Origin: Psilocybe cubensis
Lineage: Eukaryota
Length of the DNA stretch: 64,000 nucleotides
NCBI GenBank assembly: GCA_017499595.2
Contig: CM039006.1
Coordinates: 930,001 to 994,000 of the forward strand
Direction of reading: 5' to 3'
In this document: positions 36,891 to 59,753 of the stretch, piece by piece
How positions within the stretch are numbered: position 1 is the stretch's first letter
Layout of the letters: every line of letters begins with the position of its first letter
Program-made: the position numbers and the translations under genes
Notes under the pieces: model-generated
The model's input: the letters and a program-made list of their open reading frames with translations, nothing else
Told to the model about the DNA's origin: nothing
Database searches by the model: none

Positions 36891-38176
36891 TTATTCATCT
36901 CTACCGGTATACAAATGCTTTTCCAAACTCGATTCAATCCCTGCCAGCCCAGCGTCAATTTCCTCCAGCGCATTATAAGTCAGAATTTCTGACTGCAGCT
37001 GATGCAGGCGGAGGTTCTTAAACGTTGTGACCTTGCTGTCATAACTATTGTCGCCGACGGAACTGTCGATTATTTGGTCGTATGTTGCCCGTAGCTGCTG
37101 CTCGGTATAATTCTAAAATAGTTGTCAGTATCTAGTGCTTGGTAATATCTGAGTGCATACATATAGAAAAGGAGGGTTAAAATATGCCGTCTGATCTGTC
37201 ACATCCTCGAACTCAATGTCAGACTGGGTGGGAGGCGAACCGGGGTAGCCGCCCATGGGATCAAACCTGCCGTAGGTTCGAAAATAAGGGTTTTGAAGGA
37301 GCAGGTGGCATGCTTCAGGGGGTGGAGAATAGCGACCTTGCTTCCTCTCAGAGGAAATAGCTGGACGAGAGTCCATAATGATTTTGTCGACGACAGACGT
37401 GTATGAAACATGTGCTGCCATCAACGGCGGAGCCACATCATCCCGGATGACAGGCATAGGTGGAGGATCCAGGGTATCTGGAATAACAGGCATAGGGGGA
37501 GGAGCCAGGGTAGGTGGAATGACAGGCATAGGGGGAGGAGCTAGGTTATCTGGAATGATTGGCATTGGCGGCGGAGCCGTGTCGTTCCGGATGACAGGCA
37601 TTGGCGGCGGAGCCGTGTCGTTCCGGATGACAGGCATTGGCGGCGGAGCCGTGTCATTCCGGATGACTGGCATTGGCGGCGGAGCCAGGTCTTTCCGGAT
37701 GACTGGCATAGGGGGCGGAGCCAGGTTAGCTGGAATAACAGGCATAGGGGGTGGAGCCAGGTTAGCTGGAATTACTGGCATTGGCGGCGGAGCCAGGTCT
37801 TTCCGGATGACTGGCATAGGGGGCGGAGCCAGGTTAGATGAAATGACTGGCATAGGGGGAGGAGCCAGGTTATCTGGAATAACAGGCATAGGGGGTGGAG
37901 CCAGGTTATCTGGAATGACTGGCATTGGCGGCGGAGCCAGGTCATCCGTCCTTGCTGTGCGTTTGCTTTCCTTAGAGTTGCTAATATTTGAAGACATTGC
38001 TGATGCTCAGAAATCAATTAAAATTTACTTGAATTAATGCCATTAGTCTTACATTTTATAGGTTTTACGGGAGGAGGTTCCTTCAGTTTTTCAAGAAGCC
38101 TGGTAAGATTGTTGAGACTGGTGTAGTCAATGGGGGAATTTTTGCTAGAGGTGGGAATAAAGTTGTAGGAGGACAT
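36891..38176 (-). CDS. KDZ-element accessory protein containing a 12-aa Pro-rich tandem repeat; probably 3 exons
   Basis: ORF 37125-37997 plus an upstream exon (MSSYNF..., ATG 38176) and a downstream exon (NYTEQQLRATYDQ...GRDE*, stop 36891), joined by GT-AG introns. Confidence 0.62.
37420..37948 (-). repeat. Coding 36-bp minisatellite (xxx[LT]APPPMPVI), 14 full copies plus 1 partial
   Basis: Counted from the translation of ORF 37125-37997. Confidence 0.92.
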
Positions 38177-38482
38177 ACAGTCCAGAAAGTGCAACTGGGT
38201 GGGCTTGTTTATATATCTCACGGAATACAATACTATCCGAGGATTCTCCATGACACGGAAATAGATTCACCCGTGTATCGAACTTAGCAACTTTTGCACA
38301 AACTGGATCTGGTGAAGAAATCACATGACTCAGATTGTACATGTTTGTGTATGGTTTTGTTTTGCGGGACCGCTTTTTTTTAGACTTTTTTTAGACTAAC
38401 TCCAACCACGATCACCACCCTCACGTTCTACCGTGCCTCACCACTTTAACGCGTCTTCCCCCATAAAAACACGCTTTTTTCA

Positions 38483-41053
38483 ATGGCCGCTTCATCTTCC
38501 ACCACCGCCACCTTCGCCCAACGCCTCGCTGACTGGGAAAAAAAGTTTACCGAGTGCTACCGCAACGGTGAAAGCGCGTTCAACGCTGAGTTGGAGCAGC
38601 TTTACAGGGACTTGGTAAGTTCTCAATTTTATAAGATCATGACTTGCTCAACAAAAAAAAAAAAATTCCAATAGGTTCCATTGTGTCAGGAGCATGTCAG
38701 GGACGCCGCACGCTTCCGGCTCATTGACTATGTTGCGAGCCCCGTTGTCTACTCGTACAAAGTCATCCAGGGCAAGGACGGCGAGAACATCTACAGGTTT
38801 GAGGTCGACTGGGCGACGCTCAAACATCAAGTCGCCAACTTCAAGGCCTACCAGGAAGGCCAGGAGGCACAGAGGAAGAGGAGGGAGGAGGAGGAGCAAG
38901 AGAAGAGGAGGGAGAAGGAGGAGCAAGAGGAGGAGGAGAGGCAGAGGGTGGAGGAGAGGAGGAAGAGGGAGGTGAGGAGGAAGAGGGAGGAGAAGAAGAA
39001 GAGGGAGGAGGAAGAGGAGAGGCAGAGGGAGGAGGAGGAGGAGAGGCAGAGGGAGGAGGAGAGGAGGAAGAGGGAGGAAGAGAAGCAGAAGGTGGAGGAG
39101 AGGAGAAAGGATGAGAGGAGGAAGAGGGAGCAGGAGAGGAGGACCAGGGAGCAGGAGAGGCAGAAGGCGGAGGAGAGGAGGAAGAGGGAGCAGGAGCAGG
39201 AGCAGGAGCAGGAGACAGACGAGGAGAGGAACAAGGAGGAGACGGAGAAGAGACGGGCCGAGAAGGGCAAGGGCAAGGCAGTCGAACCCCCGGTGGAAGA
39301 CGGACCCGTGACAGACGCCCACAAAGACAAGGGCAAACGGAAAGCGGCGGACCCCGTGGAGTCCATTCAGTTGGCTCCAGCGGATTACAGGGGCCCACGG
39401 ACAAAGAAGGGGGAAATTATTCCCCACATTACCGCCTCCAACATGCCCGGTCACCCAGCGTACAGGGAGAAGCTGGAAAGATTGGCGAAGTCCAAGCAGG
39501 GGAAATTCAGGAGCAAGGCGATCATAGGAAGCCACACGGACGAAGACGCGGACGCGGACGTCGACGAGGACGACGAAGGCGATAACAAAGGGGCACCGCC
39601 TACCACCCCCACTGCCACCCCCACCCGGAAGATGCGCACGCGTTCCGTAAAGAAGGACACCGAGGACGATGTCCCCCCCATCAGGAAGGCGCGGTCGAGA
39701 TCCCAGAAAGTGCGCCAGGTGCCAGAGGGGATGGTGGACATGGTGGAAAGGTGCACGGCATGCATCAAATTCAAGGTGCCATGCTATGTCAAGGGGGAGA
39801 CAGGCACTGAGCCTCTCGTCCCCGTGAAGCACCAATCTTGCGAGTCTTGCAAGTCTCGCAAGATCCACTGCAGCTTCTACCCGGGGCGCAACACCTTCGT
39901 GGGTCAATTTTTGACGACGCCACTGGGAAGCTATGGGGAGGCGTTGAAGTTGGAGGAGGGAGAAGATGTTCCGGCGAAGGGGAAGGCCGGGGAAGGGTCG
40001 TTCCCCGAGGATGTGGGAGAACTGCTTGTGCAGCTCTTTGAGCGCCAAGGCAGAATCATAGAACGGCTGGACGGGTTATCCGCGTCCATGACGGCGATTA
40101 ATGCACGGATTGCGACGTTTGCCGAGACGAACTTGGCGGTGGAGAACAGGATGAAGAGCATCGAGGACGGCATCCAAGAGGTGAAGGCCGAATGGACCAT
40201 GGCCAAAGAACAAGTGGCAGGAAGCACCTCGCTTTCCGTCACGATGTTCAACGACATCACCAAGAGGATCAACCACGTCCGAGATGTGGTCGACGATTTG
40301 CTGGAGCAGGATGAACAAAGGAATCCCGCCCCCAAACAGGCAGCAGGACCCTCCAAGACGGAGGTCGAACAAGAATCGGGTCCGTCGCGGACCCGTGAAC
40401 CCACCTCTGTGCCACAATCCCCAAGCGCACCACCACCGCCAGCACCCCTCCCTTCCCCACCTCCACCTCCAGCAGCACCCATTCTCCCTTCCCCTCCTCC
40501 ACCACCGCCAGCACCTGTCCTCCCTTCCCCTCCCCCACCTCCACCCGCACCCGTCCTCCCTGCCGTGTCTGCGCCACCAACAGCGCTATTCTTGCCCGGT
40601 TCGACTCCGGAAGCGCCTTCGCCCCCCCCAGCTGGCCGACCCTCGCTCCCACCGGTACCGCCCATCCTTTCCCTGTCTCCACCACCCCCTCTCCCAGCTC
40701 CACGTCCTCGAAGTTCGACGTCAAAGGCCGCACCGTTGTCAAAGGGTGCACCATCGTCAAAGGCCGCGCCATCGTCAAAGGCCGGCCCATCCTCAAAGGC
40801 TAAGCCATTGTCAAAGGCTAAGCCATCCTCCAAGGCTGGGCCATCCGGGAATGGACACTCATCGGAGTTGTCTGATCCCTCGGACAGCGACGAGGTTGAA
40901 ATTGTGGAGGAGGAGGATGTTGAGATCGTGGCGTCCACGCTGCCCGCGTCGAACATAGCCACAAAGACAAGGGCTGGACGAAAGCGAAAGGCGGAAACGA
41001 CTCTGGCTGAAGCATCGCGCTCGCCCAAAAAATCCAAGGCCCAAAAAAAGTAG
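38483..41053 (+). CDS. KDZ-element accessory protein: E/R/K charged helix, Zn2Cys6-like binuclear cluster, coiled coil, Pro-rich tail and basic NLS-like end; intron ~38614-38673
   Basis: CTAC-x6-C-x18-CESC-x6-C at 39752-39871; long EEER/RRKR tract at 38870-39250; C-terminal RKRK...KKSKAQKK. Confidence 0.75.
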
Positions 41054-41331
41054 TGTATTTCAATTCTTTGTAACTTTTTTTTGGTCTCCTTTTTTGCCTG
41101 TCATATATTACATTGCTCACATCCCTATACAATTTTTTCATCATTTGGACTGTATATAGTTTTTACTCTCATGTGCTCATCTGTTTTATACCTCTCCCAA
41201 AAAGTAGCACTTGATGATTTTTAATGAACCCCGCTTTCTGTTTTGATTTTGTGTGAAAACATGTTTGAGAAACATCAAGATAAGAATAAAAAGCATCACA
41301 TTCAATAGGTATCATGAATCTACTTCAACAG

Positions 41332-50340: not shown

Positions 50341-51620
50341 TCATATTTCAAAATCAAAAGTGTTGGTGGCCGGTAAATTTGCAAAAAGATCGTACGTAGT
50401 AGACCATCCCGCCTCTTGGACTCCCAGCTCTTTAAATACATTCCTACGCATGTAATAGACTATGACTGCCCTATCTCCCTCGCACACCGCGCCGTGTTGA
50501 AGCAACCTGCCGGTAATTGCAACAAGGGTCATGGGATCATACTTGTACCAAAGTCCAAGGCCAGGAAGCTCAAGCCGTCCGTGTTCACCCTTCCCAAGTG
50601 GCATCAAAAAATCGTACCATGAGTAGCATGACCCATTATCCCGATGGTACGGTGTATCTCGGTTGCTGATGGCGGTCATGACTCCAAAGGGCGAACTCCA
50701 TATTGTGAGAATTTGCTTCAATATTTCGGCCTTATGGACGAACTCCGGTTCCGCAGCAAGCCGTTGAAGAAATTTTATTCCCGCCCGGTACTGCTCGGGG
50801 TGTATAATGCTCAAGATGGCTCCCAGCAAAGCCGAAGATGTCATCATGTCTCGTATAAACTCCTGTCCAATAGGATTACACAAGTCCAAGGAGACCTCAA
50901 GCGGGTTGGACGTCTGAGGAAAATATGAGGCAGTATAATACTTAGCAAACAAGTTTCTCACCTCATGGCCTTGCTGAAACCATGCCGGGGAAAAGTTAAG
51001 ATTTCCAGGTTGAAGCCAACCTGGCTCATGTCGAAAGTAACTGTCATTGACCCTCCAGCTTGTGGCCAAAGGTGCCGCCTTGTGAATCATTGTTTCAATA
51101 TCCCGTAATGAATTCCACACACTCTCCTGTTACTCTTTAGAACGCATAATATAGGAATTAATCGGTCCGTTTCTAAAACTCACCACCCTTGTCTCTGACA
51201 AAATACCTGGCAGGTACCACACCAATATGTTGCCTGCACTATCGATTACAGTTCCGGGCAGGGTTTGGTACTGTAACGTGGAATGCACCGGAGGAAACTG
51301 GTCTTTCAGGCGAGCCTCAACGGCAGAATTCTGACCCGTGCAACGTGCGCTGAGATGGGTCAAATATTCTTCTGCATCCCACGTCGTATATTCTGCCATT
51401 CACACATTATTTAATCTCAATTTTCAAAGCTTATTGATTGCATACCTTGATTTTCAATTGCCTGCAAAATCACCTCCACAGCTAGATTGCACTCAAACAT
51501 GGTCTCAGCACTGAAGTTTTCCCGGATTTGATTAGGCAGTTCTGCATGCCAAAGACAACTAGCTATCTTTGCCTTCATGTAGTTTGAGAGGGATTGGGTT
51601 AGCTCAAAGGCATAATCCAT
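50341..51620 (-). CDS. TET/JBP-family 2-oxoglutarate/Fe(II) DNA dioxygenase, 4 exons
   Basis: PGTVIDSAGNILVWYLPG and NFSPAWFQQGH, then the catalytic HxD (NRDTPYHRD), the distal H (LLQHGAV) and the 2OG-binding R (DRAVIVYYMR). This matches the fungal TET/JBP genes associated with KDZ elements. Confidence 0.9.
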
Positions 51621-52938: not shown

Positions 52939-53092
52939 AGGGTCCGTTGTACAACCATGAAATATCATTTTATTTTTCCAAATCTACTCTTGTGAATACA
53001 ACACACGTTTAAACAGACTGGGGAGAGCCATTATAACCCCGCGCGTCCTCCTTCGATATGTTCTGTACACTCTGCCAGGCCTTCAACGGACT

Positions 53093-53256
53093 CTGCGCGC
53101 GCATGCACATCAAACGCGCGCGCATGCGCATCAAACGCGTGCGCACGCGCATCAAATGCGTGCGCATGCGCATCAAACGCGTGGACGCGCGCATGTGCAT
53201 CAAACGCGCGCACATGCGCATCAAACGCGTGGACGCGCGCATGCGCGTTTGATGCA
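53093..53256. repeat. 21/27-bp minisatellite of (GC/AT) alternating tracts punctuated by ATCAAA(C); reads HARAFDA repeats on the - strand
   Basis: About 6 direct units of GCATCAAACGCG(CG/TG)..., ending with one inverted unit GCGTTTGATGC. Confidence 0.85.
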
Positions 53257-53993
53257 TATCCGTTTCCACTCCCCCTATATTCATGAGAAGGCGACAAAGA
53301 CATGTCGCCAAACTCTGAATAGTGAGGATGTGGGGGTGGGGACACATATGACCTTGTCCTGTAGTTCAGGTTTGGGGTTGAAGGAGGAGGCGGAAACTGT
53401 GATTGAGGGACTGGGTACGCGTACGCGTGTGGATATTGTTAGAAAGTATGCGGATGTGAATGCGATGGATTGTGGTGACTCGAGTGCGAGTTTGGTTGAG
53501 AGTACGAATGCGAATATAGGGATGTTACAATAAAATTTCAGTTAAATATCAATACATTTCCTTACCGAATCACGCAAAAATCAAGAAAAAATTTGTGTAT
53601 TACTCGCCCAGACAAGGATACATCTAAAAAGGTGTTAGTAGAGGTACAAGAGAATTCACGACAGACTCACATGAAGGTACAGTTAGTATTCAGCGAACCC
53701 GAGTTCATCGAGGTTGTCAGGGTACGTATTGGTGCCACCCCTATCCGTTATCGTTATCTGTTACGGTCCCACGCTGTCATGCCTTGTTCTATCTTTGTGT
53801 TCGGTCCCACGTCTATCGTTCTCCTGTTTCATCTATTGATAGTTGTTATATGTCGAGTACTCTGGTCCGGGAAGTAGTTACTCCGGTCTCCATGTATATA
53901 TAGGGTCCTGGGGTCAGTAGTCAGTCCCCAGCTTCGATATCAACTTGGTCTTTGGGCACTCTTCTCTCTTGACTTAAGTCGATTCCTAACAGC

Positions 53994-54004
53994 ATATCGA
54001 AGCT
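53994..54004 (+). promoter_or_regulatory. Primer-binding site complementary to the LTR itself (Tf1-type self-priming)
   Basis: ATATCGAAGCT, 2 nt after the 5' LTR, is the exact reverse complement of AGCTTCGATAT (53930-53940). That sequence starts 35 nt after the start of a TATATATA box (53895). Confidence 0.8.
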
Positions 54005-54082
54005 ACCCAACGTTGCCCTGGTACTCTATCCACTGCAGCGCTCGTCTACTCCACTCTACCTTGCCCCCACCTACTATACTCT

Positions 54083-54979
54083 ATGGCCGACCCTCCTTCG
54101 CCTTACGATGGGTTCATGACGATGTCTCTCGACGACCGTTTCGCCCTCCTCTTTAGGGCGCAGCAAGTCCGGTTTGACGCTGATAAAAAGGTTGATGACC
54201 GACTGTCTGCCATCGAGTCTAAACTCGAACGCCTCACAGCCTCCCTACCCAAACCGCCTGCCGCTCCCACTCCCTCTGCTCGTGCACCTCGCGCTTGACG
54301 CACCTCTAGGAAGGAACGCCCGGCTGCACCTACCTCTACCCCTACTACAGGGCCCCCGCACTCCCAATCCATCTGCTCTACTACTACCAAAGCCGCCCTC
54401 GAGAAGATCGTCGCTACCCTGTCTATTGCGGACGAACAGGCTGGCCACGTCATAGGGCGCGCGGGAACTGGCTTACGCCAAATCCACGACATCTCGCATG
54501 CAAAGATCTCGGTCTCCCCCGTCGTCACCTCCGGTTTGCGTGCCGTCACTATCAGGGGCACCGCTCGTGAAGTCGGTGATGCTCTTTCTGCTATTGGCAA
54601 GCGGATTGCCCGTCGTCGCATCCGCAACCCTAGGTCCAAGAAGCCTAAACAGCCTCCTGCGCCCACTGCCGCCCCTCCTACCCTCGTCGTTGAACCTCCT
54701 TCTCCTACTCCAACCTCGAGCTCTACCCCAACTACGCGGACATCCCGTTCCGGGACGGCTTCTCCGCACTTGCCCACTCCTACGGCTGTTGACACTCGCT
54801 CCAGCCCATCCTCGTCGCTCGCCCCTGGTTTGCCTATGGAGGTGGACGCTCTCAGGGCTCCGCAGCAACACTCTGACGGTTACTCTCGCCCCGGGCCTGT
54901 TCAGCCTAGGGAGGGAATTCAGACCGCGCGTCGTGGCGGTGGACCGCCTCGTGTCTTTGGTGCAAACCGTCCACGGTGA
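54083..54979 (+). pseudogene. KH-domain (type I) RNA-binding protein ORF inside the LTR element, with one in-frame TGA at 54296-54298
   Basis: ORFs 54083-54298 and 54536-54979 are in the same frame. Reading through the stop gives VATLSIADEQAGHVIGRAGTGLRQIHDISHAKISVS...RAVTIRGTAREVGDALSAIGKRI, a canonical KH with a GxxG loop. There is an N-terminal coiled coil and a C-terminal RRGGG. Confidence 0.85.
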
Positions 54980-57900
54980 AGACCAGGTCGTTGGGACACC
55001 GACCTTTAGAGGGGAGGTGATGTCAGGGTACGTATTGGTGCCACCCCTATCCGTTATCGTTATCTGTTACGGTCCCACGCTGTCATGCCTTGTTCTATCT
55101 TTGTGTTTGGTCCCACGTCTATCGTTCTCCTGTTTCATCTATTGATAGTTGTTATATGTCGAGTACTCTGGTCCGGGAAGTAGTTACTCCGGTCTCCATG
55201 TATATATAGGGTCCTGGGGTCAGTAGTCAGTCCCCAGCTTCGATATCAACTTGGTCTTTGGGCACTCTTCTCTCTTGACTTAAGTCGATTCCTAACAGAG
55301 GTCACCCCGGTTCTCATCCTCGTTGCTTTCCTCCTCCTCCTCCTCCTCCTCTTCAGAATCAGTATGCTGGTTGCTGTCGTCTTCATTGTCATCAGAATCG
55401 GAGCTGTTTTCAGGTGCCACTTCAGCCTGGTCCTGAGCGTCTTGCTCCTGGTCTGAGGCCCCATCTGGTTTCAGATCAGGATTAGGAGCTTCATGTGCCT
55501 CGCGGCATTTTTTGCGAGAGGCAATGTCATCTGCACGTCGGTCTTGCCTAAGAGAATCGGTAGCGGCTCGCGTGCTAGCGTGGCCAACTCCACCCCCTCT
55601 GTACAGCATGACCATGTCGCAATCCACAAAACTGTAAAAAATTAGTAAAGGGTAAGAAGTGACTAAATGTACTCACAAATTGACATAATATCTCTCCCAT
55701 TCTTCCCCTTCATTATTTTCTTTGCTTCTATAAGCTACAGATGGGCCGAGAGTCGGTATTTTTCTAAGAATGAAGCGAGGGATCAAATGGGTTGCACGAA
55801 TTACGAGGGATGGGTCCACAAAACCAAATGACGCAGAGTCATTGATATCACCAAACGCCAACTGTGGAAGCCTTCTATATTTCCAACCGTAATGGCAATC
55901 TTCACAAACACCCAGCCATCGGACATGAAGAAAATCCACTTTGTGCTTGGAGGCACAGTAGTAATCATCAGGGGTAGATATTACCACATTGGCGTGGTAG
56001 ATTCCAATGATACGGGCATACCAATAAGGATGAACCTGCTGATCTGCACCTTTGTTGCTAGCGAGTACCATGATGTCACATCGGGAAGAGTTTGGCTTCA
56101 AGGTATCTTGTATTCGACGCATATCATAGGAAGTATAGTTGATGCGTAGAACCTGATGTTCGTAAATTCGGTCACCGAGTATTGTGATTTGGAGTCGCTC
56201 ATGGGTACCAATGCTATCACTGAATTCGTTTACCCCTGATAAGCGGGCATAAAGGTGAGTTTTGAGACGAAGCATAAAGTCCTAAATACGACATTGAGTA
56301 TATAAAAACAAGCGAAAAATCCGGCTTACCCTTGTTGCCGGATCGTTTTGGTTTTGTGACATCCAGGGTAGTATATCTAACTTTTGACGCACGTCTGATG
56401 AGATGTGATAATGTAAATCAGGAGGAGTGGGCTCCAGTAACTCCCTGTCCTCACGCAGCAGCTTGCGTATCTCGACACGGTTAGTGCGGTGTACCACACG
56501 TTCTCGGTAGATGTGTTTGGCGATACCTCGAATATGATCACCTTTCTTGACCCGTTTGTAGAAGAGTTTCGCTCTCTTGTGCTCGCTTTTGCCCATCTGA
56601 GTGCTCGTGCCGTCAGTGGTGCCAAATTGGCAAATGGAATCGACGTAATCGGGAAGGGAATGCAATTTGTACGTTTGCATATTGAACGTGCGGGTCTTGG
56701 GTTCATTGGGTTGAGTCGGAGGTACTGGCAGACCCGCACTCGCTGCCTTTTTGGCCTTGGCTGCCTGTCTTTTTCCTCTCGCGGCTGTTTCTGATGGAAG
56801 CTCGCGAGTGGTGTACTGAATACAAACCTCCTTTTGGAACTGACGAAGGAGATCACATAACCGAGTACACAAATTCCCCAACTCGTCCAGAGTGGTATCG
56901 GTGTGAAGTCGAAGCTTGGCTAGGGCGTGCCATGTCGCCATTTCAAACAAGAGGTTTTGAATAATTTTATTGTGTGCAGGTTCTGGCAACAAGCCCTCAA
57001 AGACTGGTATAGAGCACTATTATGGAATCATTAATAATTAAAATCAAACATCACACGCAATTGAGGCCTACCTGAAGGAGATCTTCAAAATCCCGTGCTG
57101 CCAGTTTCTTCATATCTGAAGCATTCCTAGCAAAACGTCGGATAGTTGTGAGGCCGAAAGGGGAGACTTGGCGGTATCTAAATCTATAGTTAGTTTGAGT
57201 AAGAATCGAGATATCACGACAATACCTTTCGTTCAGAGTTGCAATGGCGTTCTGGTTGCTAGAGGTATAAAGAATCCGGAGTAGGTGACTAAATAGGGCC
57301 TTCCAGACACCCAGTTCCACTTCGTGCATGAAGTCGACAGTAAACATCCGATAAAAGTTGAAGCCATATTCAAATAAAGCCTTGGAAAAAGCGTTCTATG
57401 TAATATTCTTAGACAAAATACGTAGATATGAGGAAATAAAAATATACCCGAGTTGGAAAAGCAGAGGTCTGTTGCAGCAAGCCATTAACCGCCTTGCTGT
57501 TAACCTTTTTCCCCAAGAATAATGCTTTACGGGCAGTTTCTATGTCAAATTGACGAGTTTCGCTGTCAACGCAAGCTAGCTTGAGCCGGTTTCGCATATC
57601 CATCTTTGATCCAACCTTTGGGACATTCATAGTCTGAATTAAACAACGTGGACACAAGCAAGTGCCACGACACTTGCAGCAGGACTGCAGCATTCTGCTT
57701 GTACATTAGTTATCAATCGAAATAGCGAGTAGATGTTGACTTACTTTTCGGGGTAGTCATTTGAACTAAAAATAAAACGGAGATACATAGCTCGACATAC
57801 TCTGTCGGCCAGTTCTACGGCCTCTCCTTCAGCATACGCTCGTTTGACATCCTCATCAAGTAATAGCCCCCAGACGCCTGTATTGACCTCGCGTCTCATA

Positions 57901-59460
57901 TGGGTGAGCATTTCAGATGTTGCAGCTTTGCCAAACTGTTGCTGATGCCAATCTTGAAAAGTGTCTGTGAGCTATGACCCAAATGTTAATATGAATAGTA
58001 CATGCCAGTCAATACAAACTTACTTTAGGGATATACGCAATATGGTGCGTAGCGAATTCTTTAGGTTTCCCTCTGGTGTATTTTGACTGGTTGAGGATAT
58101 ACATAAGGATCGGCCATATAGAAGCATCGCTAAAACTGGTCAGGTGGGTAGAATCTGAAAAAATCCCGATACCAACGACAAAGGGCTCCAGGTGTCTGTG
58201 GGGACCTGTGCGTGGCTCTGACTTGATCTTTTCATACTCTTCATTGAAAATGTCCGCCACGTAGGACTCTGAGAATAAGTGTTCGGGTGGTTCGTCGGGT
58301 GAGGGACGCCAAAATTCTCTGTATGGTATGGTCGTATACGTCTCAGAGGTGCATTCTGCAAAGGCCTGTTTGATAACTTCTAGAGGTTTTTGATACATGA
58401 CGTTTTCAACAACAAATTGAGGAGCCTCCTCTTCCGAATCGAATATGAAACCATCGCATGGCACTGGTATTGAAAAGCTGCCCTTGATCCACCCAGCTTC
58501 CGGTCGACACACTTCTGACAAAGTAGGATCTGTAGAATTTTTTTGGGTGGAGATTTTGTCCAGACGCGCTGCCTCTCGAGCAGTAGAAAAGGAGGAATCA
58601 AAGTCCTTGGGGTCAAAATCCGGGTCCAGTACGACTTGGTGAATCAATTTGTCGGTATCAGCGTAGGATTTAGTACCGTGGCCGTTGTAAAACCAAGACA
58701 TGATAAGTTGAGTAGAACAATTTTTGAATAGCAAGCTCTTGTCGTCTTTTGGCTCAGAATCCAAGGACCAATCCGAAGGTAGGGCCATTGGTGTTCCCTC
58801 TGACACCTTTCTCAAAGAGTCGGCTGGGTCTTTGGCAATATTTGGAGAATCGGACACTGATGACAGTGTGAAATGTTCGTCAGGAGTAATAGAAGGGGGA
58901 CCATAGGTATACTCTTGAAATATCCCATAGCCATTCATTGGTGTTTGATACAGACTCTCCACAGATGGAGGTTCCTGAGGCTGAGGTGGTTCCTCCTCCA
59001 CCACTGGTGGTATAATTAGAGGAGGTTCGGGTGGGACCTCGTCTCGGAAGCGCTGTGGCAATCTAATAACGCGTGGAGGAAGTCCTCTGGGCCGTTCAAT
59101 GGGAGGTGGTGGTGTCGGGGGATGTGGTGGTGGTGTTGGTGATTTAGGTGGAGGCGCAGGGGGCATTGGAGGTGGTACCATATCCACATCGAGATACTCA
59201 TGATGGACATCAACGTCCATAGGCCCGGGCTCATTATTCAGGGTTGCCTGGTGCGAAGAACCACTGGCAACATTACTGTTCTGATTCTGCCTGCTGAAGT
59301 TTTCCTGGAACCCCTTCAGGACCTTGCTCATTGCAGCAGGATATTTTTTACATTTGTTGGTATGCTGCTTCAAGGAGCGACCTGGTACGAAGAGTTTATG
59401 GCACCCTAAGCAGGGTCTTTTTTCGTCGGACATAATTACGGCCTGCTGAAGTACAACTAT

Positions 59461-59753
59461 CCACGCAATGAGCCTGGATAGGGAGTAGAAAATCCTTGCC
59501 CAAGCAATGAGCCTGGGCAGAGTAACGATACCCTTATCCCAGCAATGAGCCTGGATAGGGGGGATATCCTTGCCCAAGCAATGAGCCTGGGCAGGCGAAC
59601 GACACTCTTATCCCAGCAATGAGCCTGGATAGGGGGTAGAAAATCCTTGTCCTAGCAATGAGCCTGGACAGTGGATAGGAAGCTCTTATCCCGGCAATGA
59701 GCCTGGATAGCGAGCCATCGATTCGTTCTGACCCAAGCAATGAGCCTGGGTAG
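59461..59753. repeat. Array of 8 GCAATGAGCCTGG-core palindromic units (~36-44 bp spacing) directly upstream of the Plavaka ATG
   Basis: Cores at approximately 59466, 59504, 59542, 59578, 59616, 59655, 59693 and 59737. Confidence 0.9.

Follow-up and report, generated by a model that had tools for sequence, protein, structure and literature searches.

A miniature LTR retroelement family of Psilocybe cubensis and other Agaricales with a KH-domain protein as its only gene

The window analysed here is a 64,000-nt stretch of the Psilocybe cubensis genome (GCA_017499595.2, contig CM039006.1, nt 930,001–994,000, forward strand; positions below are those of the window). It contains a small LTR element in which a KH-domain protein occupies the place where gag normally begins. 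This raises the question of how such a protein came to be the only product of a retroelement, and what it might do there. The initial annotation had proposed a family of non-autonomous elements using a KH protein, with a retrocopied host KH exon as the alternative.

Structure of the element and its insertion site

A check of the sequence identified nt 53715–55297 as an LTR retroelement of 1.58 kb (Table 1), flanked by 277 bp LTRs that differ from each other at a single site (C/T at 53802) and have the termini TG...CA (TGTCAG...CTAACA). The structural features of an LTR retrotransposon, i.e. paired LTRs, TG...CA ends, a target site duplication (TSD), a PBS (primer binding site) and a polypurine tract (PPT), are all present, and the first 25 nt of the LTR occur within the window only at the two LTRs (0 expected). 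The KH frame takes up 87% of the 1,029 bp interior. This is a young, recently inserted copy in which no cis signal of an LTR retroelement is missing, and its anatomy had been described accurately in every detail (LTR length and single difference, TSD, PPT, interior length). Rfam gave no match to nt 53500–55500 at E values up to 1.

The copy is nested in a DNA transposon and lies antisense to a repeated Plavaka-type gene, roughly 9 codons short of where the acidic C-terminal frame of this gene ends. Reads and a contig free of the element carry a single GAGGT, the uninterrupted target: 177 reads of run X14 continue from nt 53714 directly into the sequence to the right of the 3' TSD, and contig 9 of X10 bridges the site. 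An insertion polymorphism between strains was considered on this basis and withdrawn, because a repeated transposon of the Plavaka type makes up the flank. The read depth of the flank is about 350, roughly equal to that of the multi-copy element interior, against the approximately 35–41-fold expected for X14 if the genome is taken to be 40–46 Mb, so that the bridging reads may derive from paralogous copies. Loose read ends at the inner LTR edges agreed with one another at only 0.37–0.43, reads from identical LTRs being placeable at either LTR, and did not spell out any single alternative interior, such as that of a helper. The family apparently leaves excess LTRs. Run X16, guessed to be RNA, yielded one contig (nt 53300–53515) and none on the element, a result that is neutral as to expression.

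Table 1. Features of the KH element and its insertion site (window positions).
Feature	Position	Strand	Remarks
TSD GAGGT, 5' copy	53710..53714	+	5 bp
5' LTR	53715..53991	+	277 bp; starts TGTCAGGG, ends CCTAACA
TATA box TATATATAG in LTR	53895..53903	+	35 nt upstream of self-primer
Self-primer segment AGCTTCGATAT	53930..53940	+	likely transcript 5' end (start of R); 11-nt perfect inverted repeat with PBS
PBS ATATCGAAGCT	53994..54004	+	2 nt past LTR; exact reverse complement of 53930–53940
C-rich, G-poor leader	54005..54082	+	C 44%, G 12%; C-runs (at least 3) at three places
Sole coding frame, 298 codons	54083..54979	+	ATG 54083, stop 54977–54979; coiled coil, KH, basic/disordered tail
N-terminal long helix, codons 16–53	54128..54241	+	pLDDT ~89; predicted parallel homo-oligomeric coiled coil
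In-frame TGA, codon 72	54296..54298	+	CGA (Arg) in other copies
Type I KH domain, codons 109–177	54407..54613	+	GXXG loop G125-R-A-G128
Conserved stem-loop before PPT	54986..55004	+	54986–54990 with 55000–55004, plus 54992 with 54998; loop GGGAC
PPT AGAGGGGAGGTGA	55008..55020	+	abuts 3' LTR; same arrangement in 12/14 related loci
3' LTR	55021..55297	+	277 bp
TSD GAGGT, 3' copy	55298..55302	+	5 bp
Repeated Plavaka-type DNA transposon gene (insertion host)	55303..59607	-	Plavaka PF18759, E 2.7e-9, at 58009–59607

The KH protein and its family

The reported single frame with one internal stop was recovered, and KH is its only Pfam domain: KH_1 (PF00013) matches residues 112–171 (E 7.8e-9; 35.6 bits vs a cut-off of 21.5), and none of three sub-threshold matches (E 0.02–0.35) is to Gag, protease (PR), reverse transcriptase (RT) or integrase (IN). 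The AlphaFold model has a helix at residues 16–53 and a KH fold (beta-alpha-alpha-beta-beta-alpha) at 109–177, with elements E109–116, H117–124, H126–138, E141–144, E152–159 and H161–177; the remainder is disordered, the predicted disorder extending to about 60% of the protein. Foldseek places the KH domain on the third KH domains of hnRNP K and PCBP2 (target TM-score 0.86–0.91, rmsd ~1.2 A; fold matches 1zzj and 2p2r), and the best PDB matches by sequence are 2jzx and 1wvn (E 5.5e-4 to 7e-4). Both glycines of the loop, G125 and G128, are invariant in 25/25 family members. The domain is therefore a canonical type I KH, as first described, by Pfam, fold, Foldseek matches and GXXG loop alike. 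A protein atlas returned only Basidiomycota KH clusters, with scores (0.79–0.84) under the level at which that tool treats a match as more than a lead.

The coiled coil noticed earlier stands as a prediction. Three copies of residues 1–60 reached an oligomer score of 0.68, compared with 0.01 for the best control; the score was calibrated on two copies (the mark being reached by 21/30 solved same-chain pairs and 0/23 solved single chains) and applied to three, with the alignment left unused. Contacts agreed to at least 90% between runs, and partner pLDDT was at least 81. Besides these folded parts the protein has a basic stretch, RRRIRNPRSKKPK, and a single RGG (ARRGGGPPR), and its disordered tail ends in the conserved motif QTARRG.

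Pfam searches of the main frame at E values up to 1 gave no match to Gag, zinc knuckle, PR, RT or IN, the four overlapping interior frames had no Pfam match, and fold searches against the PDB and viral models returned KH domains only, with no capsid-like match. The claimed absence of capsid, zinc knuckle and pol functions thus holds, and by the same searches the frame is not one of the known Gag families. RT, IN and Gag were likewise absent from the ten longest relatives checked, and no fused form was found. With no Gag, protease, RT/RNase H or integrase, and so short an interior, the element falls outside the autonomous Ty3/gypsy and Ty1/copia types. Long proteins sharing the C-terminal motif (residues 250–298) were also sought: none of the 25 candidates scored reached E<=0.1, which is weak evidence, and in the window the PPT/LTR-junction pattern occurs at this element only, apart from a two-mismatch, chance-level match at nt 4025.

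The copy in the window is dead as a source of KH protein, owing to a CGA>TGA change at codon 72. The guess that this change is specific to the copy was borne out, since the P. cubensis paralogues have Arg at this codon and 392/408 reads of run X14 show C rather than T at nt 54296. The gene model identical to the frame of this copy (P0003) conceals the TGA within a predicted intron. Another model, JR316_0009280 (P0189), has an intron across the same stretch and possibly represents a second broken frame; if a broken copy has itself been copied, the KH protein would be dispensable in cis.

That the element belongs to a family, as had been proposed, and is not a single copy is clear from its distribution in P. 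cubensis, in other Agaricales and in metagenomes. The P. cubensis annotation includes 11 distinct intact paralogues of 298 aa (at least 90% identity) on contigs of 7 distinct sizes, as well as broken ones. A word-indexed protein search found 39 relatives at E<=1e-3, those named coming from Psilocybe cubensis, P. cf. subviscida, Agrocybe pediades, Dendrothele bispora and Termitomyces, and a search of cluster representatives found 375 at E<=1e-3 and 83 at E<=1e-10. Fourteen metagenome contigs carry further relatives. Nine of these have direct repeats with a period of 1254–1612 nt (1306 in the window), 12/14 have an open KH frame beginning with M, and in 12/14 the stop of this frame is followed within ~50 nt by a PPT and an LTR start of the form TGT.AGGG. 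In L011 the PPT is weak, and L014 has no clear LTR; L009 is a tandem form sharing an LTR. Frames in the flanks of L007 and L004 were examined and none was informative. Across the family the gene varies from 250 to 350 codons and protein identity falls to ~40%, with the layout and cis signals kept. In current annotations the copies appear as ordinary 'KH domain-containing' genes of the host. No description of such elements was found in print; supplementary lists of the Repbase type might name them.

There is strong support from sequence comparison for the single gene of the family having been kept intact under purifying selection. In five pairs with whole-frame dS of 0.27–0.85, dN/dS is 0.04–0.15 for the KH core and 0.21–0.41 for the whole frame; these values come from an in-house Nei-Gojobori script run on 12 chosen pairs, of which the distant ones were saturated. 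Outside the family, the closest proteins have several KH domains and 25–33% identity. By this distance, together with the low dN/dS of the KH core, the gene is not a recent copy of a host gene, the alternative raised in the initial annotation.

Self-priming and candidate RNA targets

The self-primer segment, present again in the 3' LTR at nt 55236–55246, and the PBS form the only inverted repeat detected in nt 53715–54090. A script finds the same arrangement in the window and in 9/14 related loci, and a tenth (L007) was recognised by eye. When eight elements were aligned, 94.3% of primer-PBS cells were paired and 5/11 pairs had changed on both sides, a level of pairing matched by 0/500 shuffles; slid registers paired at 23–40%. 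The distance from TATA box to primer is 33–36 nt in 9/11 elements examined. Self-priming has been described for Tf1 and Tj1 (PMC4600332), and an 11-nt complement with compensatory changes across eight elements is what is found here, the transcript 5' end being putative. It is thus strongly supported that reverse transcription in the family is primed by its own RNA in the Tf1 manner: transcription would start ~35 nt past the LTR TATA box, and the transcript would fold its first 11 nt back onto the PBS. The first reading of the element as TRIM/LARD-like holds for its miniature size and has to be qualified because of this mode of priming, which had gone unnoticed.

Two further conserved features lie either side of the gene. 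The leader composition seen in the window recurs when ten leaders are pooled (C 43%, G 12%), with C-runs of at least 3 in 10/10 and G-runs in 0/10. The stem-loop before the PPT shows changes on both sides at 6/6 pairs, with 86% of cells paired, and 0/500 shuffles reach this. Both the C-rich leader and the hairpin are candidate binding sites for the KH protein.

A KH protein in a non-autonomous retroelement

We favour, with slightly better than an even chance, the reading that these elements are a non-autonomous, self-priming LTR retrotransposon family of Agaricales whose KH protein binds the RNA of the element and loads it into helper particles. RT/RNase H, IN and probably capsid would be supplied in trans by a self-priming Ty3/gypsy helper of the Tf1/sushi-like kind. 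The KH protein would oligomerise on its own transcript and would replace the RNA-binding or chaperone part of Gag, bringing the small RNA into the particles of the helper; this role is deduced from its architecture and from the selection acting on it. More tentatively, and somewhat short of an even chance, the family may represent an unrecognised class of long-lived, protein-coding 'satellite' LTR retrotransposons, in which a host-derived coiled-coil KH protein has replaced Gag, and which persist across Agaricales as parasites that cannot do without self-priming Ty3/gypsy elements, the KH protein recognising the C-rich leader or the hairpin and loading the RNA into helper particles.

Conservation across the family and low dN/dS show that the KH protein matters but not what its task is, and purifying selection would also be expected if the protein served in anti-silencing or helper control. 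The same self-priming element could therefore carry a protein that protects or translates mRNA, counters silencing or modulates the helper. The closest folds are of the PCBP/hnRNP K type, and proteins of this type are mRNA stability and translation factors; the possible copying of a broken-frame copy would likewise fit a trans-acting factor. We nevertheless regard such a role as rather unlikely, given that proteins coating their own RNA are built in this way, from a coiled coil, one nucleic-acid-binding domain and a basic tail, and that the conserved C-rich leader and pre-PPT hairpin suggest a target in cis. Less likely again, and improbable in our judgement, is that the KH protein represents a Gag that has diverged greatly, assembles its own particle or RNP and takes up helper Pol, making the element an unusual 'TR-GAG'. 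The frame does begin at the gag position and is the sole gene, with the PPT directly behind it; its N-terminal helix is predicted to self-associate, and in plants TR-GAG elements having only a Gag frame are known (PMC4350172). However, Pfam matches neither Gag nor a zinc knuckle at E up to 1, the folded parts amount to a single helix and the KH domain of 70 residues within a largely disordered protein, and the PDB and viral models contain no capsid-like match to it.

That a host KH gene was captured or retrocopied between LTRs in a single event, or that an immobile host gene is driven by LTR promoters, is already contradicted and has scarcely any probability left. It is true that KH domains are ordinary in hosts and that the copies have been annotated as ordinary genes. 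Against this, the copies are numerous and come with LTRs, with a TSD and with two LTRs nearly identical to each other, the order frame-PPT-LTR-PBS is common to 12/14 unrelated contigs with cis signals that covary, the nearest outside proteins are distant (25–33% identical), and sequences free of the insertion have a single GAGGT.

Under the favoured reading, in which the KH protein loads its own RNA into helper particles, there are parallels in layout outside LTR elements. LINE-1 ORF1p and the hepatitis delta antigen are small proteins with an N-terminal coiled coil, an RNA-binding module and a basic region, and coat the RNA of their parasite; the delta antigen is in addition all that its satellite encodes, everything else being borrowed. 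The layout of the KH protein resembles theirs by analogy, with no kinship in sequence or fold, the RNA-binding module being an RRM in ORF1p, arginine-rich motifs in the delta antigen and KH here. The KH domains of hnRNP K/PCBP are the best match in sequence and fold, with GXXG kept, but identity is only 20–33%, and those host proteins have at least three KH domains whereas the element protein has one KH domain and a coiled coil.

Non-autonomous LTR elements are generally viewed as either non-coding (TRIM, LARD) or carrying remnants of a parental gag (TR-GAG, BARE-2). TRIMs, including the fungal Helenus (PMC10886601), are likewise small, with short LTRs, a 5-bp TSD, PBS and PPT, and also have tandem LTR-sharing forms (cf. 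L009) and apparent excess LTRs. Since neither TRIMs nor the KH family have pol, both depend on a helper. TRIMs, however, are non-coding and tRNA-primed, whereas the KH family is self-primed and has a conserved gene under purifying selection, so that it fits the TRIM definition in size and not in lacking coding capacity. Plant TR-GAG elements are also non-autonomous, below 4 kb and with exactly one frame at the gag position (PMC4350172); the present family differs from them in its fungal hosts, its priming by self-RNA and a frame that is KH-only by Pfam and fold, with no Gag or zf-CCHC match (E up to 1) of the kind a Gag precursor should give. With Tf1/Tj1 and the Tf1/sushi group (PMC4600332) it shares complementarity of the PBS to the 5' end of its own transcript in the LTR, a PBS 2 nt past the LTR, the 5-bp TSD and TG...CA ends, but those elements are autonomous (Gag, PR, RT, IN), and the KH family has no pol for an RT/IN phylogeny.

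In annotations, mobile copies of the family have been filed as host genes, and one model contains an intron invented over the TGA of the present copy. The family extends Tf1-type self-priming, with clear covariation, to a non-autonomous family borne by mushrooms, and at 1.6 kb, with one gene and defined RNA signals, it offers a tractable system for studying how LTR elements choose the RNA that they package. What would be new, if the favoured reading is true, is the long retention under selection of a different RNA-binding protein in a non-autonomous LTR family. Such a retroelement parasite would itself supply the protein that handles its RNA and take nothing but enzymes from its helper, and would be the retrotransposon counterpart of a satellite virus.

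Structure and insertion site of the window element

The KH element (nt 53715–55297) carries a full set of cis signals for LTR-type retrotransposition, and the coordinates of its features are collected in the table. The initial annotation had described two 277-bp LTRs with one difference, a perfect GAGGT target site duplication (TSD), a polypurine tract and a 1,029-bp interior with a single 298-codon frame, and every one of these features was recovered. The LTRs differ only at nt 53802 (C/T), begin with TG and finish with CA (termini TGTCAGGG...CCCTAACA), and the interior of 1,029 bp holds only one long frame. The window copy is a young insertion, and KH elements are present in many copies.

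Features of the KH element and of the adjoining transposon gene (window positions)
Feature	Position (nt)	Size	Strand	Remarks
5' LTR	53715–53991	277 nt		direct repeat comparison
3' LTR	55021–55297	277 nt		direct repeat comparison
TSD GAGGT	53710–53714 and 55298–55302			both sides of the LTR pair
TATA box TATATATAG	53895–53903			inside the LTR
Long frame	ATG 54083 to stop 54977–54979	298 codons		in-frame TGA at 54296–54298
Purine tract AGAGGGGAGGTGA	55008–55020			adjoins the 3' LTR
Plavaka-type DNA transposon gene	55303–59607		minus	Pfam match at 58009–59607

Summed read depth in sequencing run X14 (1632 million letters, about 35–41-fold for an assumed genome of 40–46 Mb, with 39.7 million letters in the X1 contigs) was about 384 for the interior, about 1300 for the two LTR positions together and about 350 for the flanks. 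On this estimate the KH interior is present in about ten copies, in line with the annotation, and the LTRs exceed two per interior, meaning that there are solo LTRs or other carriers. The flank is itself repeated about as often as the interior (about ten-fold), because the minus-strand frames to the right are those of a Plavaka-type transposase (PF18759, KDZ superfamily, E 2.7e-9). Read from the sequence, the KH element lies antisense inside the acidic C-terminal frame of this gene, which in the absence of the insertion would run for nine more codons to a stop. The uninterrupted target, with a single GAGGT, is seen in 177 X14 reads that run from nt 53714 directly into the sequence after the 3' TSD, and in one contig of run X10 that spans the site. 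Since the flank is a repeat, insertion polymorphism between strains is not claimed from these reads.

At nt 53515, 265 X14 reads (agreement 0.97) and one X1 contig turn leftwards into different sequence, and the only contig of X16, presumably an RNA run, departs from the window at the same point. X14 depth falls to 65–100 over nt 53300–53467, with many differences. Either an indel or the boundary of the Plavaka-type repeat may account for the break. About 450 nt to the left of the KH element, a tandem array of 21–27-nt units (CGCGCGCATGCGCATCAAA...; nt 53075–53262) reads in one frame as repeats of the HAHQTRA type. A Tet_JBP 2OG-Fe dioxygenase domain (nt 50341–51129, minus strand; PF12851, E 1.5e-18) lies some 7 kb away from the Plavaka transposase; PMC12730594 deals with an association between TET/JBP genes and DNA transposons of fungi. 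Two long tandem arrays, one with a 36-nt and one with an 18–21-nt period (nt 37389–38010 and 38844–39272), fall within large open frames (nt 37125–41100) that probably represent a repeat-rich coding gene.

The KH protein and its relatives

In the main frame Pfam recognised KH_1 at residues 112–171 (E 7.8e-9; 35.6 bits, cut-off 21.5) and, at E values up to 1, no Gag, zinc knuckle, protease, RT or integrase, as had been noted by eye; the four overlapping interior frames had no Pfam match. An AlphaFold model based on a 25-sequence alignment has a confident helix (residues 16–53) and a confident type I KH fold (109–177), the remainder being disordered. By Foldseek the folded part matches the KH3 domains of hnRNP K and PCBP2 (target TM-score 0.86–0.91, rmsd about 1.2 Å), a placement with which a PDB sequence search agrees. 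Three copies of residues 1–60, modelled without the alignment, gave an oligomer score of 0.68 against 0.01 for the best control. In the calibration, which was made with two copies, 21 of 30 proteins solved as one-chain pairs attained the mark, whereas none of the 23 single-chain structures did. At least 90% of the contacts agreed between runs, partner pLDDT was at least 81, and the contacts were in-register and parallel.

A word-indexed protein search returned 39 proteins at E≤1e-3. Several are from Psilocybe cubensis (the best intact, 298 aa and 98% identical); of P0004, P0010 and P0012, the Agrocybe pediades protein shares 75% identity with that of P. cubensis and the two from Psilocybe cf. 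subviscida share 54% and 52%; one from Dendrothele bispora is 47% identical, and that of Termitomyces is a fragment. All others stem from environmental assemblies, where the contigs measure about 1–2.6 kb. That Agrocybe is closer than the congener P. cf. subviscida may reflect either several old sub-lineages or horizontal transfer. An exhaustive search of cluster representatives gave 375 proteins at E≤1e-3, 83 of them at E≤1e-10. The stronger matches are single-KH proteins of about 250–400 aa; the weaker, with 3–6 KH stretches and 25–33% identity, are ordinary multi-KH proteins. Pfam found no RT, IN or Gag in ten of the longest single-stretch or odd matches, and in the three that reach about 770 aa the order helix, KH, basic stretch is retained and the tail is longer. 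Clustering at 90% groups the best match with others into a set of 14 members, all from P. cubensis annotation, with 11 distinct 298-aa sequences spread over contigs of seven different sizes.

A scan of metagenome contigs added 14 related loci, nine with direct repeats at a period of 1254–1612 nt (1306 in the window). In five of these nine the repeat lies exactly at both contig ends, as results when an assembler walks round an LTR-interior-LTR unit; the contigs of L007, L009, L011 and L012 continue into other sequence. An open frame starting with M and bearing the KH motifs was present in 12 of the 14, and in 12 of the 14 a purine tract and the beginning of an LTR, TGT(C/T/A)AGGG, come within about 50 nt after the KH frame (the tract is weak in L011, and L014 is unclear). 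The LTRs end in CCCTAACA or near variants. Two KH elements, 91% alike, stand head to tail with a common LTR in L009 (nt 249–1919), where frame end, hairpin, purine tract and LTR start occur at nt 284–334 and again at nt 1718–1768. No pol sequence lies behind the KH frame in any of the 14 loci. The suggestion of a family of non-autonomous elements with a KH protein, rather than a single copy, is borne out by the many copies with a conserved gene and no pol, including the 11 intact P. cubensis paralogues, and by relatives in other Agaricales.

To estimate dN/dS, 12 chosen pairs were aligned by codon and analysed with a Nei-Gojobori script of our own; the distant pairs are saturated, and little weight attaches to their ratios. 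In the five pairs with a whole-frame dS of 0.27–0.85 the KH core evolves far from neutrally (dN/dS 0.04–0.15), with 0.21–0.41 for the whole frame and weaker constraint (0.13–0.51) on the N-terminal part and tail. Nearly all of the 22 invariant columns of the 25-sequence alignment fall in the KH domain and the helix after it, among them the two glycines of the GXXG loop (G125 and G128); most members further share an APTSTPTTG motif and a QTARRG at the C terminus. The frame is therefore maintained by selection across element lineages.

The internal stop had been suggested to be a CGA>TGA change specific to this copy, and other copies do read CGA: the paralogues have Arg at codon 72, and 392 of 408 raw X14 DNA reads (placed at 90% likeness) have C at nt 54296. 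The window copy is very probably the locus of P0003, a 275-aa gene model, because the frame is 100% identical to it outside a predicted intron that removes codons 68–90 and with them the stop. P0189 (JR316_0009280), modelled with the same intron, has Cys98 in common with the window copy. Differences between copies are mostly C>T (60 places in X14) and G>A (43 places), the opposite changes T>C and A>G numbering 30 and 10. In protein terms, P0005, P0189, P0179 and P0185 depart from the window frame by R>C, R>H, S>L, D>N and E>K, the first three kinds being frequent in the degraded paralogues. The pattern, to which the window stop conforms, suggests deamination of methylated or RIP-like targeted repeats.

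Self-priming and other conserved signals

No tRNA-type primer binding site (PBS; TGG...) was found downstream of the 5' LTR. Instead, 11 nt starting 2 nt past the LTR (ATATCGAAGCT, nt 53994–54004) are the exact reverse complement of an LTR segment, nt 53930–53940, the only inverted repeat found in nt 53715–54090, and RNA of nt 53928–54012 folds with the primer/PBS duplex (z = -2.85). Since the LTR segment begins 35 nt after the first base of the TATA box, it is likely to be the first stretch of the transcript. This arrangement is the same as that described for Tf1/Tj1, in which the mRNA itself supplies the primer for reverse transcription by pairing a segment of its 5' region with the PBS (PMC4600332).

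A PBS of 10–13 nt complementary to an upstream LTR segment was detected by script in the window and nine of the 14 loci, and by eye in L007. The pairing is kept while the sequence varies (window AGCTTCGATAT, L002 ATCTTTGCAAT, L007 ACCTTAGAAT, L008 AGCTTAATAT). In an alignment of eight elements with 41–72 nt from primer to LTR end, which omits the longer L002, L007 and L009, pairing holds in 94.3% of cells, and 5 of 11 pairs show changes in both partners; 0 of 500 shuffles equalled the real alignment in pairing or in covariation score, and sliding the register left 23–40% pairing. The self-priming geometry is thus supported by covariation. TATA box and primer are 33–36 nt apart in 9 of 11 elements; L002 has its TATA box at the opposite end of the contig, and L011 has ATATAAG in its place. 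A second small hairpin, identified by eye, lies between TATA box and self-primer (nt 53910–53933, CTGGGG...CCCCAG) and at the same place in related LTRs, e.g. GATGCTGT...ACAGCATC in L002; its 3' arm extends into the primer.

A further stem-loop stands between the stop codon and the purine tract (nt 54986–55004, loop GGGAC). Across 13 aligned sequences, 12 of them distinct, all six pairs change on both sides and 86% of cells pair, with L002 and L005, whose stem forms in a register shifted by one, scored as misses; 0 of 500 shuffles reached the pairing or covariation score. In ten elements taken together, the leader from PBS to ATG (nt 54005–54082 in the window) has a C content of 43% and a G content of 12%; every one of them has 2–6 runs of at least three C and no G run. 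As the KH domain is nearest in fold to domains that bind poly(C), this leader is a candidate ligand of the KH protein.

Proposed mode of propagation and comparison with known elements

Somewhat favoured is a helper-dependent element in which a self-priming Ty3/gypsy helper would supply the enzymes, and probably the capsid. The KH protein would oligomerise through its N-terminal helix, bind its own RNA in place of the RNA-binding/chaperone part of Gag, and so bring the element RNA into the helper's particles. With its coiled coil, single RNA-binding module and basic tail, the protein recalls L1 ORF1p and hepatitis delta antigen in layout.

Less probable is a protein acting in trans, on RNA stability, translation, anti-silencing or control of the helper. 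A very diverged Gag would account for a single frame between LTRs and is improbable: beside the negative Pfam result, no capsid was matched among viral models, where the only matches were KH proteins of large DNA viruses. Least credible by far is a passenger or host gene; the ordinary multi-KH proteins among the weaker matches are only 25–33% identical, and the frame recurs in the same position from element to element under constraint.

The element is TRIM-like in size and dependence, but not in priming, self-priming by the element's own RNA having escaped the initial annotation: TRIMs are described in PMC10886601 as non-coding and tRNA-primed, whereas the KH element is coding and self-primed. 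Plant TR-GAG elements, as outlined in PMC4350172, have the one-frame layout in common with it, but its frame is not Gag. With Tf1/Tj1 (PMC4600332) it shares the mode of priming, but it has no pol from which kinship with that clade could be read. No description of KH-domain LTR retroelements was found in the main text of openly accessible papers. In Agaricales, KH elements form a family of LTR retroelements that are non-autonomous, prime themselves, are devoid of pol and code for one protein only, a coiled-coil KH protein.
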